From Oceanispirochaeta sp. (GTDB lineage Bacteria > Spirochaetota > Spirochaetia > DSM-2461), in contig CAXXXD010000003.1 of the NCBI GenBank assembly GCA_963663385.2, forward strand, positions 224,001-288,000: a DNA stretch of 64,000 nt, given 5' to 3'. Of this stretch, positions 24,001-30,000 are shown in pieces. Position 1 is the stretch's first letter. Each line of letters opens with the position of its first letter. A program made the position numbers.

Positions 24001-27000
24001 TCAAGCCTGTTTCGTTGAGAATCTGTAGACGCTGGTATGGGTGTAAACCTGACCCGGATTGATTACCGGCGAGGGAAAGTGGGGCTGATTCATACAGTCC
24101 GGAAAGAGCTGGGTTTCCAGACAGAAACCCCAGTTCTTAATGTACTTGACATTTTCCCTGCCCTGAACCCCGTCCAGAAAGTTCCCTGTATAAAACTGTA
24201 CCCCCGGCTGGTCGGTTTCCACTTCCATAACCCGGCCCGATACGGGTTCTTCCACGCGGGCAAAGAGGCGGAGCCCCTGAGCCGGAGTAAGAACATAACA
24301 GTGATCGTACCCGCCCCGGACTTCTTCTATCCTGCTGCCTATTCTCTGCCGTTTCGTAAAGTCCATCGGGGTTTCTTTTACAGACAGGATCTCTCCTGTG
24401 GGAATCTGGCTTTCATCGACCGGGAGGAACCAGGGACAGTCCATCTGTATCATATGATCAAGGATTGAGGCGTTTTTAACCCCGGCCAGGTTGAAGTAGG
24501 TATGGTTTGTCAGATTGACAGGTGTCGGTTTATCCGTTACGGCTTTATAGTCAAATTTCAGTTCGTTTTTATCTGTTACCGTATAGATCATGGTGACATT
24601 CAGGTTCCCCGGGTACCCCTCTTCTCCATCGGGGCTGAAAGCAGTCAGAACCAGGCCGGCTTCCCTGTCTGACTGAAAGGGGGTTACCATCCAGTTTTTA
24701 CGGTCAAAAGCCATTTCCTCTCCCCCGTGCAGATGATTGGGACCGTTATTAATAGCCAGGGTATATTTTTTGCCGTCCAGCTGAAACTGTCCTCCCTCAA
24801 TCCTGTTTCCGAAACGCCCGATAGCCGCACCGAAGTAGTAGCGGGAATGAACATACTCTTCGAGTGTTTCAAATCCCAGGGTTATCTCTTCGGATTTTCC
24901 GTTCCGGTCCGGTGCCTTTATGGATGTTACAATCCCCCCGAAACTGCTTGCCTGTACAGTAAAACCCTTATCTCCTTCTATTGTATAAAGATCTGCTGCT
25001 GTTCCGTTGGGAAGTGTTCCGTAATTCTCTTTACTTACCTTCATTCTATCCTCCGACCTTTTCAAACTGAATCTCGATTAAAAAAATCCAGCCCGGAAGC
25101 TGGATCTTAATTTTAATCAATAAGTATTTTTTAGAACAGGGTCTAGGCGGTGCAAACCTCAAGGGCCCTGTCGGCTGCTGTCGCGGCATCAGGAGTATAA
25201 ATATCGGCTCCAATGGATTCACAGAAAGACTGGGTTACAGGGGCTCCGCCGATCATGATTGTTACTTTATCCCGGATTCCCGCATCCTGTGCTGCCTTAA
25301 CAACGTTTTCCATCTGAGTCATGGTTGTTGTCAGAAGAGCGGATACGGCAATGATGTTGGCATTATGCTCTTTGGCTGTTTCCACATACTTCTCGGGGGA
25401 TACGTCGGTACCCAGGTCGATAACTTCCAGCCCCTTTCCTTCCAGCATGATTTTTACCAGATTTTTACCGATATCGTGGAGGTCTCCTTTAACTGTGCCA
25501 ATTACAGCTGTACCTTTTCCTTCTGTACCCTCTGATTCCAGATGGGGTTTGAGAATCTCCAGACCGGCATTCATGGCACGGGCGGCAATCAGTACTTCCG
25601 GTACAAACACCTGATTGTTCTTGAATTTTTCTCCTACAATACTCATGGCGGCCAGCAGGGCATTGTCCAGTATGTTCTGTGCTTCGGCTCCCTTGTCGGA
25701 TGCGGCATCCACACTGGTTTGACACAGTTCTTTTACATCTGCTGCTTTACCCTTCTGCATCATTTCAGAAATTTTTTCCAGATCTGCCATTTTTGTCTCC
25801 TTAAGTTTAAATCGTAATAGTTGCTGTATTACATTCGACTTAATCCTCGAAGTGCGAAATGCGATCCACCTGACAGTGGGGTTCAAGACGAGTATCCTGA
25901 CTTGCAGATCATTCTTGCCTGAGCCTTCCCGATGGTTTAGTATCAGTGGCATTTTCAGGTTTGTCCCTGCTCACAGTGACGGGTTCGTGGAGGAGTTTCA
26001 CCTCGCTTCCTCGCTTGTTGAACTGATAACAGTATCCCTCTGAAAATACCGGGTCGTATTGGAAAATCTTGTTTTATTATGTAAAAATAAGACCAATTTC
26101 AGGGGGAAAATACTAGTTTTTTTCTCATAAATACAGATTGTAACAGATCAGGCAGGATAATCAGCTATGGATTTCAGAGTTCTCCCGGTCAATCCGGCCC
26201 CTTTTTTCCCTGTATTTTCCAGGGGAAAGTCCGGCAATTTTCTTGAATACCTTTGTAAAATAGCTCTGATCTTCATAACCGACCATACCCGCAATTTCAA
26301 CCAGAGAGAATTTGCTGTTTAACAGGAGGTTTTTGCTTTTCTCAATCCGAACCTGATTCAGGTAGGTATTGAAGTTGCATTTCATCTCCTCTTTAAAAAT
26401 TTTACTGAAGTAAGCGGGACTCAGGTAAACCGATGATGCCACTTCATCCAGAGAGACTTTTTCGGCGAAATTCCTGTTGATATACTGAATGGCCTGGAAG
26501 ATGGCATCCGCGTGTTTGACATCCCTTAAATCAAATACAAGGTCGGCAAAGCGGACAATCACTTTTGCCAGCCAGCCGGCAATCCCCTCGATGGATGTGT
26601 AATAATTAATCTCTTTAAGGTAGTTGAAGTTCATACCGAATATCTGTTCCGCATCGGCTCCGCCTTCAACAGCTGCCCTGGAAAGCAGGACAAGGAGTTC
26701 CAGAACCCGGGCTTTGACAACATCAAAATTCCCGCCGGAGGAGAAGAAAATAACTCCGAGAATTTCGTTCAGGATCCGTCTGGCATTCTGGGAATCACCA
26801 ATCTGAATCAGGTGAAGCAGTTCCCTTTCTTTTTCTACAGGGTACTGGGATATTTCAATCTCCGAATGTTCCATCCGTTTAATGTATTGGATATACTCGG
26901 ATATCTGGGCCTGCTGATCCATGGTATCTTTTTTGGAAACCAGTTCGGAGGTCTGCCCCTCCGTCAGATAGCTGGCGGATATAAGGAGCATTTCGGAGAG

Positions 27001-30000
27001 GGCCTTGGCCCTTTCCGTGGTAAGTGTCGGTATTCGGGACAGTTCCCGCCGGAAATCCTCTGAATCCGGCAGATCACGGCCGTATTTCATTCTGAGTTCA
27101 TCAACCAGTTCATCCGGCTCTATTATAAGGGCGGGACCGGCCACCAGGGCTCCGGACATCAGCCCCTCTTCCATCAGGGGCGAAGACCAGTGAAGCAGGG
27201 ATACCGGGCAGAAATACATATAGCTGCCCCCGAATCTTTCGGACTGATACCCGCCGTAAAGGTGTGACTGGCGGCAGTTCAGGCGGGTGCCGGTAATCTC
27301 TACCATACGGCTGCAGACAGGACAGAAGGAGTCAATGACACCCTCTCTGGAAAGGCGGTTTCCCTTGTTATTTATAACAAAACATTCTATCCCTGTTGCC
27401 CGGGTGTAGGTTTCAGCCATCTCTATGGCCTTTTCAAAAAAGGGAGAAATATAATCTCTTGCTTTGTTACTCATTAGTTCATTTTATACATAAAAGGGAT
27501 TCTGGAAAATACATATTCATAATATATTCGTCCTGGAAACCCTTGTGAGAGGATAATTCCAGGTATTCCGCGGTATTCTGGATCTCTTCACAATGTTTCA
27601 GGTCATCCCTGTTCAGCGCCGTGCAGATAACTCCGGAACCGCAGGAGTTCCCCACGGTCACAATCCTGTCTTTCAACTCTTCAGGGAGCAGCCCGATTTC
27701 AAGAGCGCTTTTCTTATTGATGAAGGATCCGAACCCGCCTGCAAGGAAAACATGTTTGATTTCATCCATGGAGTGGCCTGATTCCTTGATAAGGGTTTGT
27801 ATCCCCGCTGCAATGGAGCCTTTGGCCAGCTGCACTTCCCTCAGGTCCTTCTGACTGAAAAAGACTTCCTTATTATCCCTTGTTATTATAAAGCGGCTGT
27901 TATTCTCATCGGATTCAAGGAAACCCAGATTCTCCGGAGGAGTATCTCCCCAGTCCGATTCATCCTGAAACCGGCCTGTATAGTCGGCGATTCCTGTTCT
28001 GAGAAGATAGGCTGTCATATCGATGATACCGGATCCGCAGATGCCCGTTGCAGGCTGGTCCTGAATAGTCTCCCATTCCAGAACCCCGTCTTCTCCGCAG
28101 ACTTTGCTGATAGCCCCGGGGATGCCTCCGGTTCCGCACTGTATATTCGCTCCCTCGAAAGCCGGACCGGCTGCGGTAGAGCAGGTAAGGATACGGTCCC
28201 TGTTGCCGAGGGCTATCTCTCCATTGGTTCCGATATCCACCAGAAGAGATATATCGTCGGATACGCTCATGCCGGTTGAAAGTATACCGGCAACAATATC
28301 GGCGCCGATATAGGCCGACAGGGAGGGCAGCAGGATAAAACGGATCTGCCGGGGCAGCCGGGAACCCAGCTCTCCGGGAGTCAGTATCATTTTCTCTGTT
28401 GAAGCCGGGATAAAGGGTGCCACGGCCAGGTGCCGGGGATTCAGACCGCTGAAAATATGCATCATTGTGGTATTCCCCGCCAGAAAAATCCCCTGTATAT
28501 CATTTTCTTCCAGGTCCGCATCCATCAGGGCGTCCGTATAGAGTGTTTCTATCTGTTTGAGGATCCGGTCCTGCAGTTTTTTCAGTTTTTCAGGATCTTC
28601 ACCGATATAATCGATCCGGGAAATAACGTCTCCGCCAAAACTCTTCTGTCTGTTCAATCCGGATTCTGTAGCGGCAACTTCTCCTGTTTTTAAATTCAGC
28701 AAATAGGCAACAACCGTTGTTGTCCCTATATCTACAGCCAGGGCATATTGCTTTTCCGATGTATCTCCGGATTCCAGGGCTGTTATTTCACTGCCGCAGA
28801 GGGTTGCCGTAATCAGCTCACTTTCTCTGATTACAAAGGGCAGCTGTTTTCTGATACTATGATCTTGTATACGGGATCCTTCCGGGAGCTTTTCAAGAAG
28901 CCTCTGTTCATCCGGTCTCTGATCTTCCAGAGTCGGTTCTTCAGTCTGAAGGCATACTTTTTTTATAAGAGGATCGACGGGACCCTGATAAGCCCTGCCT
29001 TCGGTCTGAATATTCCCGGATTCCAGAGTGTTGATAAAGGCCAGTTCCACCGGTCCCATCGCTCTTGCCTGACAGGCCAGACGAACTCCCCTGCTGATTT
29101 CATTTTCATCCAGGAGTTTCTTCTCTTCCGGGGTGAGGGGAGAAATGTCTCCTCCTATGATTTTTATCCGGCACTTGCCGCAGGTCCCCTTTCCGCCGCA
29201 GGGCGCATCCAGGGTGATCTCCGGAATATGATTAAGCGCCTCTAGCAAATTCATATCTTTCCGAATCGTTTCATTGATAATACGGCTTCCATCATGTAAA
29301 GTTAAATGTACGGTTTCCATTTGCCGGGCTCCTATATTATGGTTTTTACTATATTAGAAAGTTAAACCTCACTGTAAGGGAAATCTTGTACAATTCTATA
29401 ATATTTTTGTATTTTTCTGTGACGGAGTTAAAATGAAAAAGACAGCTCTTCTTACACTCTTCTTCCTTCTGCCTATGCTGTTGACAGCCACACCTCAGGA
29501 GGATTTTATGACAGCTCTGAGGGAATCCCGTCTGGCTGATGCGGGAGTGTATCTCCGAAACGGCGGCAATATTAATGAAGCCATAGAGAACGGTCGTACG
29601 GCTCTTCAGATAATGTGCGGCGAACAGCGCAGTTCTGTGGTCCGCTGGATTCTGGATCAGGGAGCCGATCCCGATCTGGTGGGATCTGACGGGAGGACGC
29701 CCCTTATGCAGGCTGCCCTCATCGGCAGCAGGGATATTGCGCAGATCCTTATTTTGAGGGGAGCAGAAATTAACTGGCAGGATTCCTTCGGGAATACCCC
29801 TCTTCAGATAGCTGTCAATTCGGGGCATTGGGAGCTTGCTTCCTACCTGGAAGACAAAGGCGGCCGTATCCTGGAAGGGTATTTTGAACACCCTGTCCTG
29901 AGTGAGATCTGGACGAGGAGGCAGCATTATAAAGAGGCACTCAGGCTTCCTGAAAAACGCTGGGAAGGCTATGCCTTTTTGTATGAGGTGCTGCAGGGGA

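Follow-up and report, generated by a model that had tools for sequence, protein, structure and literature searches.

The locus considered here raises the question of how one small corrinoid module relates to a large, scattered set of putative methyltransferases. In the window, by which we mean the whole 64,000-nucleotide stretch of Oceanispirochaeta sp. that was analysed, the minus strand of the interval 24001-29320 carries the genes for a RACo-type activase, a PocR/AraC regulator, a stand-alone corrinoid protein (CP) and an aldose epimerase, together with a cobalamin riboswitch (Table 1); no URO-D gene lies in this interval. A preliminary description of this DNA proposed that this single hub serves all 28 URO-D/MtaA-like paralogues of the genome (G000). 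We consider the chances slightly better than even that a single CP/RACo hub serves many sugar O-demethylases, each specific for its substrate, although it probably does not serve all of the paralogues.

The activase consists of a 2Fe-2S ferredoxin domain and an ASKHA ATPase. It gave the single match to PF14574 in the genome, so it is the only RACo there; its best NCBIfam match is AcsV-like, at 410 bits and under that model's cut-off. The CP has the DxHxxG motif as GDLHDIGKN, matches MtgC-like/pyl_corrinoid models at 195-209 bits (under their cut-offs), and is 66-72% identical to homologues from Clostridia. Six B12-binding domains in the genome are over the cut-off, and CP is the sole small methyltransferase-type carrier among them (the other five were not annotated individually), in agreement with the single stand-alone corrinoid protein described before. 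The cobalamin riboswitch was also found again at the score given for it, over the full length of the model (positions 1-189) and above the gathering score of 31.5 bits. It stands ahead of CP in 3/3 same-genus genomes. The CP gene begins with an ATG that has the Shine-Dalgarno sequence AAGGAGA 5 nt ahead; no terminator lies between the riboswitch and this ATG, and in predicted folds the Shine-Dalgarno sequence and AUG pair with 25867-25849. With a terminator-like hairpin and T7 downstream, the CP gene looks monocistronic. The epimerase probably starts at the ATG at 25044, after GGAGGA, as we read the sequence.

Table 1. Features of the hub interval and of the URO-D locus in the same window.
Feature	Position	Strand	Evidence
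Aldose 1-epimerase (galactose mutarotase family)	24001..25044	-	Pfam Aldose_epim 307 bits
Terminator-like hairpin (ATCCAGC/GCTGGAT) + T7, 3' of CP gene	25079..25105	-	Sequence reading; hairpin 25086-25105
Stand-alone corrinoid protein (CP), putative methyl carrier, 215 aa	25143..25790	-	Pfam B12-binding_2 + B12-binding
Cobalamin riboswitch aptamer, 5' leader of CP gene	25870..26049	-	RF00174 78.7 bits
PocR sensory domain + AraC HTH regulator, 437 aa	26161..27474	-	Pfam PocR 84 bits, HTH_18 77 bits
RACo-type reductive activase of corrinoid proteins, 613 aa	27479..29320	-	Pfam Fer2, RACo_linker, Raco_middle, RACo_C_ter 250 bits
Ldh_2-family dehydrogenase, creatininase-family hydrolase, SDR; directly upstream of the URO-D paralogue	36503..39351	+	Pfam
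URO-D-family paralogue, 347 aa	39617..40660	+	PF01208 81 bits
GntR/FCD regulator near the URO-D paralogue	40978..41667	-	Pfam
TRAP transporter DctQ, DctM, DctP near the URO-D paralogue	41980..45024	+	Pfam

PF01208 matches 29 genes in the genome: the 28 counted earlier, which are over the gathering score of 23.9 bits, and one more at 19 bits. Four canonical MtaA-like genes score 188-219 bits, exactly as had been reported, and the rest score 27-85 bits. The strong divergence in the preliminary description (median identity 26%, 5th-95th percentile 21-34%) was reproduced: among 174 pairs that align over at least 200 aa, the median is 25% and the corresponding percentile interval 20-32%. Every one of the 29 falls under the cut-offs of TIGR01463 and NF004889 (235-244 bits), the canonical four at 151-185 bits and the divergent genes at 25-77 bits, and four paralogue genes have no match to these models at E 1e-5. 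The paralogues score higher on MtaA/CmuA models than on HemE, and the genome has no true HemE, which agrees with the earlier view that they are methyltransferase-like and not haem-pathway decarboxylases. HemE identity (TIGR01464) was rejected, as the best score was 109.6 bits against an equivalog cut-off of 303. HemE has the same Pfam family and TIM-barrel fold as the paralogues, but the latter sit in sugar loci and carry a metal-ligand motif. The predicted structure of one divergent member, L017 (pLDDT 97), is closest to MtaA 4ay7 (TM 0.68-0.72), ahead of UROD and MetE. Judged by model scores and this predicted fold, the divergent set is nearer to MtaA than to UROD.

The H-x-C-G zinc motif had been described as kept, and for the first two ligands this stands: across the 29 genes the H is present in 27, the C in 23 (the other six have Asp) and the G in 26. 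It does not hold for the third zinc ligand of MtaA: besides the four canonical genes, L009 alone has this Cys, and in the divergent core a His stands one residue after that position. The His-Cys-Cys set of MtaA-type S-methyltransferases occurs in L002, L010, L021 and L009, while canonical L004 has Phe at the His position; the divergent genes otherwise retain H-x-C/D-G with the third Cys replaced. Among 111 L017-like sequences, His is present in 111, the next ligand is Cys in 76 and Asp in 34, the adjacent His is found in 92, and the third Cys of MtaA is not conserved. The main text of PMC10418091 describes superfamily O-methyltransferases as replacing Cys ligands. From these residues, the divergent His-Cys/Asp-His site looks more like the O-type than the S-type.

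The paralogues belong to carbohydrate loci well beyond chance. An importer component lies at most four called ORFs away from 22/29 URO-D genes (Pfam), and a sugar-type importer at most three ORFs away from 20/29 (phmmer panel), whereas the background rate among all ORFs other than transporters is 14.7% (binomial p 6e-11 for 20/29), so the importer proximity noted earlier is borne out; counted by gene cluster, it is 15/24. Importers beside the family, here and in the other genomes compared, are of the CUT1/CUT2 ABC, TRAP and SSF kinds, and the neighbours in this genome include RhaA, RhaM, FGGY kinases, fucosidase and GH130. The sole URO-D gene of the window is an outlier, with H-N-D-S instead of H-x-C-G. 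Its orthologues (76-80% identical) occur in Clostridium sediminicola, Acidaminobacter and Oceanispirochaeta; CP+RACo lies within 3-4 genes in 2/10 of the orthologous loci, and TRAP DctPQM is directly upstream in 2/10.

We surveyed 80 loci with CP orthologues (57-68% identical) from Clostridia, Kiritimatiellia, Spirochaetota and others. Canonical MtaA-like genes are present at 36 of these, RACo at 43 and CobW at 18, and a PocR/AraC homologue lies at most two genes from the CP orthologue at 39. The CP/RACo/PocR-AraC module is primarily a conserved partner of canonical MtaA-like genes, and for this reason its service to all 28 paralogues is something that we infer. Divergent URO-D genes are found at 22/80 loci, within three genes at 18, and adjacent and co-directional at 10; the other 58 loci have none. 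The divergent URO-D genes at these loci include homologues of paralogues of this genome, two of L005 (59% and 49% identical) and others of L012a (64%), L007 (51%), L003 (44%) and L022a (44-47%), and they adjoin pectate lyase, GH106 rhamnosidase, fucosidase, a GH141-like protein and sugar transporters. Two of the three annotated Bacteroides/Phocaeicola loci have the gene order GH141-GH31-URO-D-like-CP-SSF symporter; the third is without GH141, and close by it lie a MetH-activation-like gene and a canonical MtaA-like one. The URO-D-like proteins of these loci have the motif H-L-D-G, and hhalign shows them to be homologues of the L017 subfamily (97.5%, E 5e-12). According to excerpts of PMC10154630, the GH141 enzyme BT1002 frees 2-O-methyl-xylose-fucose from RG-II.

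In line with the sharing among free-living Spirochaetia that the preliminary description had claimed, 81 of 151 genomes of the class have the family. The number of candidate UroD-fold enzymes reaches about 70 per genome. All 70 of the 151 genomes that are RACo-positive hold the URO-D family, and those with at least 17 first-look URO-D candidates have RACo in 37/37 cases and a CP match in 36/37, in counts that include related genomes and so are not independent samples. The same caution applies to a Bacillota class, where RACo is present in 32/34 genomes with L017-like proteins versus 5/43 without; the exceptions, G158 and G182, hold 5 and 9 L017-like matches and no RACo. Since canonical MtaA-like genes are the commonest partners of CP, this co-occurrence could be carried by the canonical genes together with a shared lifestyle. 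Five spirochaete genomes have divergent paralogues with neither RACo nor a stand-alone CP: G094 (100% complete) has the L009 type, a 65% L020 orthologue and a 39% L014 homologue, and G019, G148, G087 and G121 have L009-type genes. G021 (81% complete), with 10 family matches, has neither RACo nor CP. From the five genomes it follows that CP is probably dispensable for at least some subfamilies, namely the L009 type and possibly those of L020 and L014. Gene neighbourhoods and co-occurrence tie the divergent paralogues to the corrinoid module, and this context supports CP dependence.

Among known systems, the three-component corrinoid O-demethylases/dehalogenases of anaerobes (MT1 OdmB, VdmB, MtvB, MtoB or CdmB, with CP, MT2 and activating enzyme) have in common with this genome UroD-fold MT1 candidates, a small B12-binding_2+B12-binding carrier with DxHxxG, and an ATP-dependent RACo/RamA-type activase, here with four RACo domains. 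They can also have many MT1 paralogues per genome: excerpts of PMC13222342 mention 20 CdmB paralogues that served as queries. However, their substrates are methoxy-aromatics or halomethanes and not carbohydrates, and they are organised as compact operons that include a CP and a folate-binding MT2 of their own. In this genome neither CP nor RACo is linked to the roughly 25 candidate MT1 genes, and there is no folate-type MT2 (methyl-corrinoid:tetrahydrofolate, pterin-binding). Pterin_bind is limited to FolP, the sole stand-alone gene with this domain, and the pterin module of split MetH, just as no methyl-tetrahydrofolate-side partner beyond split MetH had been reported earlier. CdmB gives a weak PDB profile match (48 bits versus 142 for MtaA). 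The methylcobamide:CoM methyltransferases MtaA/MtbA/MtsA (PDB 4ay7) are the best match in sequence and fold and share H-x-C-G, but the divergent paralogues are without the third Cys, have extra N-terminal segments (340-450 aa) and, as close relatives show, belong to a bacterium, unlike the methanogen hosts of MtaA.

The type 1 mlp clusters (Kountz and Balskus, bioRxiv 2023, PMC10418091), which the main text of that paper proposes for methyl-sulfur and methyl-selenium metabolism, comprise CP, a Ram/RACE activase and canonical His-Cys-Cys MtaA-like proteins, with no folate methyltransferase. The CP-RACo-canonical URO-D neighbourhood (36-43 of 80 loci) fits that description by neighbourhood, clades aside. 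Type 1 mlp parts are clustered, whereas in this genome they are dispersed, with the four canonical genes on other contigs or far from CP, and Mlp2 + Mlp3, CP and Ram/RACE do not occur in one cluster. The same main text has 0 occurrences of PocR, AraC, CobW, riboswitch, sugar or carbohydrate, and the divergent sugar-locus paralogues fall outside its scope. We found no paper on a sugar-demethylase network of this kind.

In the reading that we favour, the most likely role of the roughly 25 divergent enzymes of this sugar-fermenting spirochaete is the anaerobic removal of methyl groups from methylated sugars, an activity of which we know no earlier description. CP would be the one methyl carrier of the network, its translation gated by the cobalamin riboswitch, RACo would use ATP to bring oxidised Co(II) back to its active state, Co(I), and PocR/AraC would be the regulator within the hub. 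Most of the divergent paralogues would be substrate-specific MT1 enzymes, each for one imported methylated carbohydrate, with methyl ethers such as 2-O-methyl-fucose or -xylose, O-methyl-rhamnose or 4-O-methyl-glucuronate, and possibly a methyl ester, as candidate substrates. Polarisation of the O-CH3 bond at the His-Cys/Asp-His metal site would let the methyl pass to Co(I)-CP, and the demethylated sugar would enter the ordinary pathway encoded alongside. CH3-Co(III)-CP may then give its methyl to a thiol acceptor via the four canonical MtaA-like enzymes or the homocysteine-binding module of split MetH. Our observations are of gene content, motifs, neighbourhoods and co-occurrence, and we infer the CP dependence, the substrates, the direction of transfer and the acceptor; to our knowledge, Co(I) cleavage of the alkyl methyl ether of a sugar has never been shown.

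The divergent paralogues might instead be TIM-barrel enzymes of sugar catabolism that need a metal but no corrinoid and act by decarboxylation, isomerisation, hydrolysis or direct methyl transfer, with CP/RACo/PocR-AraC serving only the four canonical enzymes, as in type 1 mlp clusters. The five genomes without RACo or stand-alone CP fit this, including the L020 and L014 types in G094, as do the loss of MtaA's third zinc ligand and the fact that UROD, of the same fold, is a cofactor-free decarboxylase. No divergent paralogue adjoins CP in this genome, and the canonical URO-D, RACo and CobW neighbours of CP match the cluster in the main text of PMC10418091. We still think this rather unlikely, given the adjacent, co-directional divergent genes at 10/80 CP loci and in Bacteroides glycosidase operons, the Bacillota contrast in RACo, and the closeness to MtaA over UROD.

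That the enzymes depend on corrinoid but take methyl groups from non-carbohydrate donors (methoxylated aromatics of plant glycosides, methylated amines or thiols) imported or released with sugars, the sugar-locus siting being co-regulation only, seems improbable to us. The sugar-specific neighbours, GH31 and GH141 in Bacteroides among them, and the sugar-type importers speak for carbohydrates, and no aromatic-ring catabolic genes adjoin the paralogues. Some loci do lean the other way, with Opp-type SBP_bac_5, M20 peptidase or serine dehydratase in place of sugar genes at L006, L009 and L014, and the characterised UroD-superfamily MT1s covered in excerpts of PMC13222342 and PMC10418091 all use aromatic ethers, haloalkanes or thiols. 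A regulator (AraC, GntR, LacI) adjoins most paralogues and glycosyltransferases occur at L019 and L023, as might be expected if some paralogues were non-catalytic sensors for those regulators, or if the enzymes were corrinoid-dependent O-methyltransferases working in reverse on surface-glycan sugars. Most loci are import and catabolic operons, though, and the metal-site residues show the conservation seen in enzymes. Sugar O-methylation is known to proceed through SAM-dependent enzymes, which counts against the reverse direction, and we regard both variants as highly improbable.

Sugar demethylation through a shared hub may extend beyond this genome. Anaerobic polysaccharide degraders of several phyla would have one highly conserved CP and one activase serving dozens of fast-diverging UroD-fold enzymes, each for one methylated sugar and with its gene beside those for the import of that sugar, and with the methyl groups going to thiol acceptors or methionine and not to folate; we put this wider proposal at a little less than an even chance. 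If true, such a hub-and-spoke network would supply the oxygen-free route that has been missing for methyl ethers in pectin (RG-II), hemicellulose and algal glycans, and in the genus Oceanispirochaeta its hub would be gated by a B12 riboswitch.

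A corrinoid module occupies the interval 24001–29320, where every gene is on the minus strand. It consists of a reductive activase of corrinoid proteins (RACo), a PocR/AraC regulator and a stand-alone corrinoid, or methyl-carrier, protein (CP). There are no URO-D genes in this interval, which marks the hub of a finding that concerns the whole genome (5.3 Mb, 4 contigs). RACo occurs once in the genome. B12-binding domains gave ten matches, six above the cut-off, and CP is the only small methyltransferase-type carrier among these six, so the single stand-alone corrinoid protein of the preliminary description is borne out. 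Its assignment of the others (MetH, radical SAM, OraE, GlmS, CarH-like) fits as far as ORF length goes (858, 604, 763, 141 and 301 aa). The CP gene has an AAGGAGA 5 bases upstream of its ATG. It looks monocistronic because a terminator-like hairpin separates it from the aldose 1-epimerase gene, whose adjacency is thus weak evidence; the same hairpin weakens co-transcription with the epimerase as a link to sugars.

Features of the window, in window positions
Feature	Position	Strand	Remarks
RACo, 613 aa: 2Fe-2S ferredoxin + RACo linker, middle and C-terminal ASKHA domains	27479–29320	-	first in transcription order
Regulator, 437 aa: PocR sensory domain + AraC helix-turn-helix	26161–27474	-	second in transcription order
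Possible extended -10 (TGTTACAAT)	26145–26137	-	in leader 25790–26145
Cobalamin riboswitch aptamer, full-length	25870–26049	-	within 370-nt gap; 78.7 bits vs gathering score 31.5
CP, 215 aa: B12-binding_2 + B12-binding, DxHxxG loop GDLHDIGKN	25143–25790	-	domain matches
Hairpin ATCCAGC/GCTGGAT, then seven T	25079–25105	-	terminator-like; between CP and epimerase genes
Aldose 1-epimerase	likely start ATG 25044	-	last of the interval in transcription order
Ankyrin-repeat protein, N-terminal hydrophobic leader	29433–30623	+	directly adjoins RACo gene
URO-D paralogue, outlier	39617–40660	+	only family member in window
DUF6364-PIN pair	51587–52307	+	toxin-antitoxin-like
LVIVD-repeat protein (1084 aa) and TPR protein (719 aa)	52359–57772	-

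Judged by the first genes after them, the genome's seven cobalamin riboswitches include just one in front of a protein that uses B12, the one in the CP leader. The other six are followed by a CbiK cobalt chelatase, BtuF-like binding proteins (3) or genes with no Pfam match (2). CbiC is present, so de novo B12 synthesis is likely. The riboswitch is kept at the same position in all three other genomes of the genus (G034, G062, G109; 4/4 with this one), 71–136 nt upstream of CP and about 1.45 kb past RACo. We found no terminator in the leader. In predicted folds the Shine-Dalgarno sequence pairs with 25852–25849 and the start region with 25866–25859 or with 25910–25904 of the aptamer, and both the Shine-Dalgarno sequence and the AUG are sequestered whether or not the aptamer segment is included. 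It would be odd for a B12-dependent carrier to be under an OFF switch. Before CP orthologues of other phyla, nhmmer with a profile of the seven gave one weak match beside CP (locus L103) and a core-motif scan gave none. The riboswitch is not kept in most other lineages; there the gap before CP is mostly below 250 nt and the regulator gene often abuts CP; in many of the CP loci L050–L129, the PocR/AraC gene stops 0–30 nt upstream of the CP start or overlaps it. Only this genus and its near kin appear to have the riboswitch-CP arrangement.

The URO-D family (PF01208) has 29 matches in the genome, with the 28 reported earlier above the cut-off and one more below it; four score 188–219 bits and the others 19–85 bits. 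Median identity among the 29 is 25% (5th–95th percentile 20–32%; all-against-all BLAST, 174 pairs of at least 200 aa), close to the 26% given before. By BLAST the family has a canonical group of four MtaA-like genes (L002, L004, L010 and L021, named by locus), a core group of 14 genes mutually 28–47% identical (L001, L012a, L017, L019, L014, L008a, L008b, L020, L011, L018, L007, L005, L024, L022a) and 11 outliers, the window's gene among them. We call all genes outside the canonical group divergent. The curated NCBI cut-offs for MtaA/CmuA, MtaA, MtbA and HemE are reached by none of the 29. The divergent genes score higher on the MtaA/CmuA models than on the HemE model, in agreement with the earlier view that they are methyltransferase-like and not haem-pathway decarboxylases. 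In L004 (8501–9862; contig C2:68640–70001) and in L025 (9205–10551), the canonical protein ends in a fused MJ0307-type thioredoxin-like domain, with CobW next and Phe in place of the zinc-binding His (FFVCG). This fusion type is the commonest CP neighbour in other genomes, and in L025 its gene directly follows an 82% orthologue of the paralogue at the rhamnose locus, L017.

Most of the family lies in loci that look like sugar uptake. We annotated 185 neighbouring ORFs by Pfam (96 + 89 proteins), and the window's own locus besides, and found an importer component (CUT1, CUT2, TRAP, SSF, MFS or Opp-type) within 4 ORFs of 22 of the 29 genes. Those with none nearby are L002, L003, L004, L010, L014, L015 and L024, three of them from the canonical four. 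As background we took 4628 crude ORF calls (greedy, not from a gene-finder), labelled by a phmmer panel of 11 importer proteins (239 matched). Within 3 ORFs, an importer accompanies 20/29 URO-D genes vs 14.7% of other ORFs (binomial p 6e-11), or 15/24 when counted by independent gene cluster, and the proximity claimed earlier (21 of 28 within three genes) holds. Neighbours include RhaA, RhaM (twice), class II aldolase, FGGY kinases, RbsD/FucU, alpha-L-fucosidase, GH130, GH2, PfkB and ROK, and most paralogues adjoin an AraC, LacI, GntR, DeoR or two-component AraC regulator. The window's paralogue comes directly after genes for an Ldh_2 dehydrogenase, a creatininase-family hydrolase and an SDR, and beyond it lie a GntR regulator and a TRAP transporter. 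At L011 (1986–16202; contig C2:1010508–1024724), one URO-D paralogue is surrounded by a PFL-like glycyl radical enzyme and its activase, three hybrid Peripla_BP_4-AraC regulators and an IS110 transposase.

At the metal site, in the H-x-C-G region, 27 of the 29 paralogues have His; two residues on, 23 have Cys and 6 have Asp. A phmmer search with L017 against 1.84 billion cluster representatives gave 9244 matches at E ≤1e-3, 4373 at 1e-10 and 664 at 1e-30. We aligned L017 with 110 of 127 near-full-length matches; of these 111 sequences (L017 numbering) all have His243 and Gln267, 110 have Gly246, and position 245 is occupied by Cys (76), Asp (34) or Arg (1). The position aligned with the third zinc ligand of MtaA is Ser, Cys or Thr with no preference, and the residue after it is His in 92/111. 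Among the 29, that third Cys is kept only in the four canonical genes and in L009. The zinc motif of the MtaA branch, as it was first described, is only two thirds right: the first two ligands stand and the third Cys is lost in divergent genes other than L009. According to Kountz and Balskus (PMC10418091), S-methyltransferases of the UroD superfamily have His-Cys-Cys, and in O-methyltransferases one or both Cys are replaced by carboxylates or non-ligands; with its third Cys lost, the divergent group resembles the O-type. The AlphaFold model of L017 (pLDDT 97, pTM 0.94) is closest to MtaA (4ay7/4ay8, TM 0.68–0.72), then to UROD structures and then to MetE.

In other genomes, divergent genes do occur beside CP. 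We collected 80 loci around CP orthologues (57–68% identical, tblastn). They come from Clostridia, Oscillospiraceae, Lachnospiraceae, Kiritimatiellia, Spirochaetota and other taxa, and we assigned their ORFs by means of a local phmmer panel. RACo is present in 43 of the 80, a PocR/AraC homologue within 2 genes of CP in 39, a canonical gene in 39 (within 3 genes in 36), CobW in 18 and a sugar-type importer component in 25. A divergent URO-D gene was found in 22 loci (within 3 genes in 18) and none was seen in the other 58; it is directly adjacent to and co-directional with CP in 10, with gaps of 1–186 nt. Several are relatives of paralogues in this genome. Those of L005 are 59% and 49% identical, and the latter adjoins CP, with genes for an SSF symporter and a Sugar_tr MFS protein next. 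A relative of L012a (64%) occurs with a pectate lyase and a GH106 rhamnosidase, one of L007 (51%) alongside a 1944-aa S-layer protein that matched the GH141 panel member, and one of L003 is 44% identical. Relatives of L022a (44–47%) adjoin CP, with DUF2284 and a canonical gene. Orthologues of the window's paralogue, 76–80% identical, occur in Clostridium sediminicola, Acidaminobacter, a Bacillota MAG, Oceanispirochaeta and Marispirochaeta; CP and RACo are 3–4 genes off in 2/10 of their loci and TRAP is directly upstream in 2/10. CP is 80–89% identical in other Spirochaetia and 66–72% in Clostridia. These identities suggest recent exchange between phyla of both the window's paralogue (L139, L140, L144, L145) and CP.

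Distant relatives of L017 in Bacteroides/Phocaeicola lie in operons of the order SSF-GH141-GH31-URO-D-like-CP-SSF (L031 3310–13619; L030; L035). GH31 includes alpha-xylosidases. GH31-URO-D-like-CP-SSF is present in 3/3 of the annotated loci and GH141 in 2/3. A few kb away lie a canonical MtaA-like gene and a gene for a stand-alone protein with a MetH-activation domain, and no RACo was found in the one Bacteroides genome searched. Six URO-D-like proteins of this type share the motifs Y-H-L-D-G and L-N-A-I-Q, and hhalign matches them to the profile of the L017 family (probability 97.5%, E 5e-12, 190 columns). The founding GH141 enzyme, BT1002, frees the disaccharide 2-O-methyl-D-xylose-alpha-1,3-L-fucose from rhamnogalacturonan II (RG-II), according to PMC10154630. 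A 2-O-methyl-xylose demethylase would fit in the GH141-GH31 operon, which is a candidate system for the 2-O-methyl-xylose of RG-II.

We consider it slightly better than an even chance that the divergent enzymes and the CP/RACo hub form a demethylase network. RACo would hold CP in the Co(I) state, the known function of its family. In the divergent enzymes, methylated sugars that have been imported would bind at a His-Cys/Asp-His metal site, which would polarise the oxygen of the ether or ester; the Co(I) of CP would accept the methyl group, by analogy with methyltransferase 1 (MT1) enzymes of the MtaB, OdmB and CdmB type. The demethylated sugar would enter the pathway encoded alongside, for example RhaM-RhaA-kinase-aldolase at L017. 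Canonical His-Cys-Cys enzymes may unload CH3-Co(III)-CP onto a thiol, as PMC10418091 proposes for mlp clusters; alternatively, a free homocysteine module may take the methyl group to methionine. CobW-type GTPases beside canonical genes (18/80 loci; also L004) would fit a role in metal loading. Against the network, no folate-type methyltransferase 2 (MT2) was found in the genome, and the stand-alone Pterin_bind gene considered for this role proved to be FolP, with 327 bits to the DHPS equivalog. A methyl-folate module occurs solely in a split MetH at L039 (contig C2:829194–834470), made up of a 307-aa homocysteine-domain gene and an 851-aa pterin/B12/activation gene. The split MetH is followed by a YitJ-like homocysteine methyltransferase/MTHFR and has an anaerobic sulfatase maturase upstream.

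The other explanation, that the divergent genes have a corrinoid-independent function, seems to us rather unlikely, and it has clear cases on its side. No divergent paralogue is linked to CP in this genome, which we count against the corrinoid tie. Among 151 genomes of the class (at least 80% complete), the family is present in 81 and RACo in 70, all of them within the 81. Of the 11 that have URO-D genes and no RACo, four have only HemE-like genes, G014 (84% complete) has CP, and G021 (81% complete, 10 matches) has neither RACo nor CP. The remaining five (G094, G087, G019, G148, G121) have intact divergent genes, and MetH is their only CP homologue. Three of the five have L009-type orthologues (56–58% identical) and two have distant L009-like genes. 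The L009 type keeps His-Cys-Cys and adjoins GntR, an M20 peptidase and a serine dehydratase; it is probably corrinoid-independent and to be set apart. G094 (100% complete, 80 contigs) has a 65% L020 orthologue, a 39% L014 homologue and an L023b-like gene besides, which shows that core-group members can persist without the corrinoid module.

The distribution of RACo favours the demethylase network. No more than 12 matches per genome are scored in these searches, so we took the count of first-look candidates as a rough family size and set a threshold of 17 before RACo was looked at. RACo is present in 37/37 genomes at or above it (one to four matches each) and a CP match at E ≤1e-45 in 36/37; the exception, G138, is in 340 contigs. 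G077 and G084 have 72 candidates and a single CP match, so few carriers with many enzymes is general. In a Bacillota class (that of G151; 77 genomes), which we reached via one CP locus, 34 genomes have L017-like proteins (E ≤1e-30), as many as 18 matches in genomes of 2–4 Mb, and RACo is present in 32/34 of these vs 5/43 of the rest. Five of the genomes (G160, G161, G168, G178, G181; 2–4 Mb) have 14–18 scored matches and 39–61 first-look candidates, so Spirochaetia are not alone in this expansion. These figures are suggestive and not proof, because genomes that are related do not count as independent and because RACo also travels with canonical MtaA-like genes.

The closest known systems are corrinoid O-demethylases and dehalogenases with a UroD-fold MT1 (PMC13222342) and type 1 mlp clusters (PMC10418091), neither of which concerns carbohydrates; riboswitch, PocR, AraC, CobW, sugar and carbohydrate do not occur in the main text of PMC10418091. 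In open full-text literature (subscription papers were outside the scope), searches for corrinoid- or cobalamin-dependent sugar demethylation with methylated sugars, polysaccharide utilisation, rhamnogalacturonan or GH141 returned no paper on it. Sphaerochaeta with corrinoid, and cobalamin riboswitch with corrinoid protein, gave nothing closer there, and we found no description of an anaerobic route for removing sugar methyl groups. The only sugar demethylase we know of is an oxygen-dependent P450. Methylated sugars beyond those of RG-II include 4-O-methyl-glucuronate, O-methyl-rhamnose and 6-O-methyl-galactose. Such sugars are constituents of plant and algal cell walls, as in RG-II, which bears 2-O-methyl-fucose and 2-O-methyl-xylose (PMC12282258; PMC10154630). 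What this genome adds is scale (about 25 candidates, and in relatives as many as about 70), a single unlinked hub with a riboswitch on it, and explicit counter-examples. If the demethylase network is real, it would give corrinoid methyltransferases a new substrate class and a function to a very large unannotated family, in which a single paralogue has 9244 matches among cluster representatives at E ≤1e-3. Fibre degradation in guts and sediments would then be tied to the supply of B12, and the context of the rhamnose, fucose and RG-II loci would offer enzyme-substrate pairs for direct testing.
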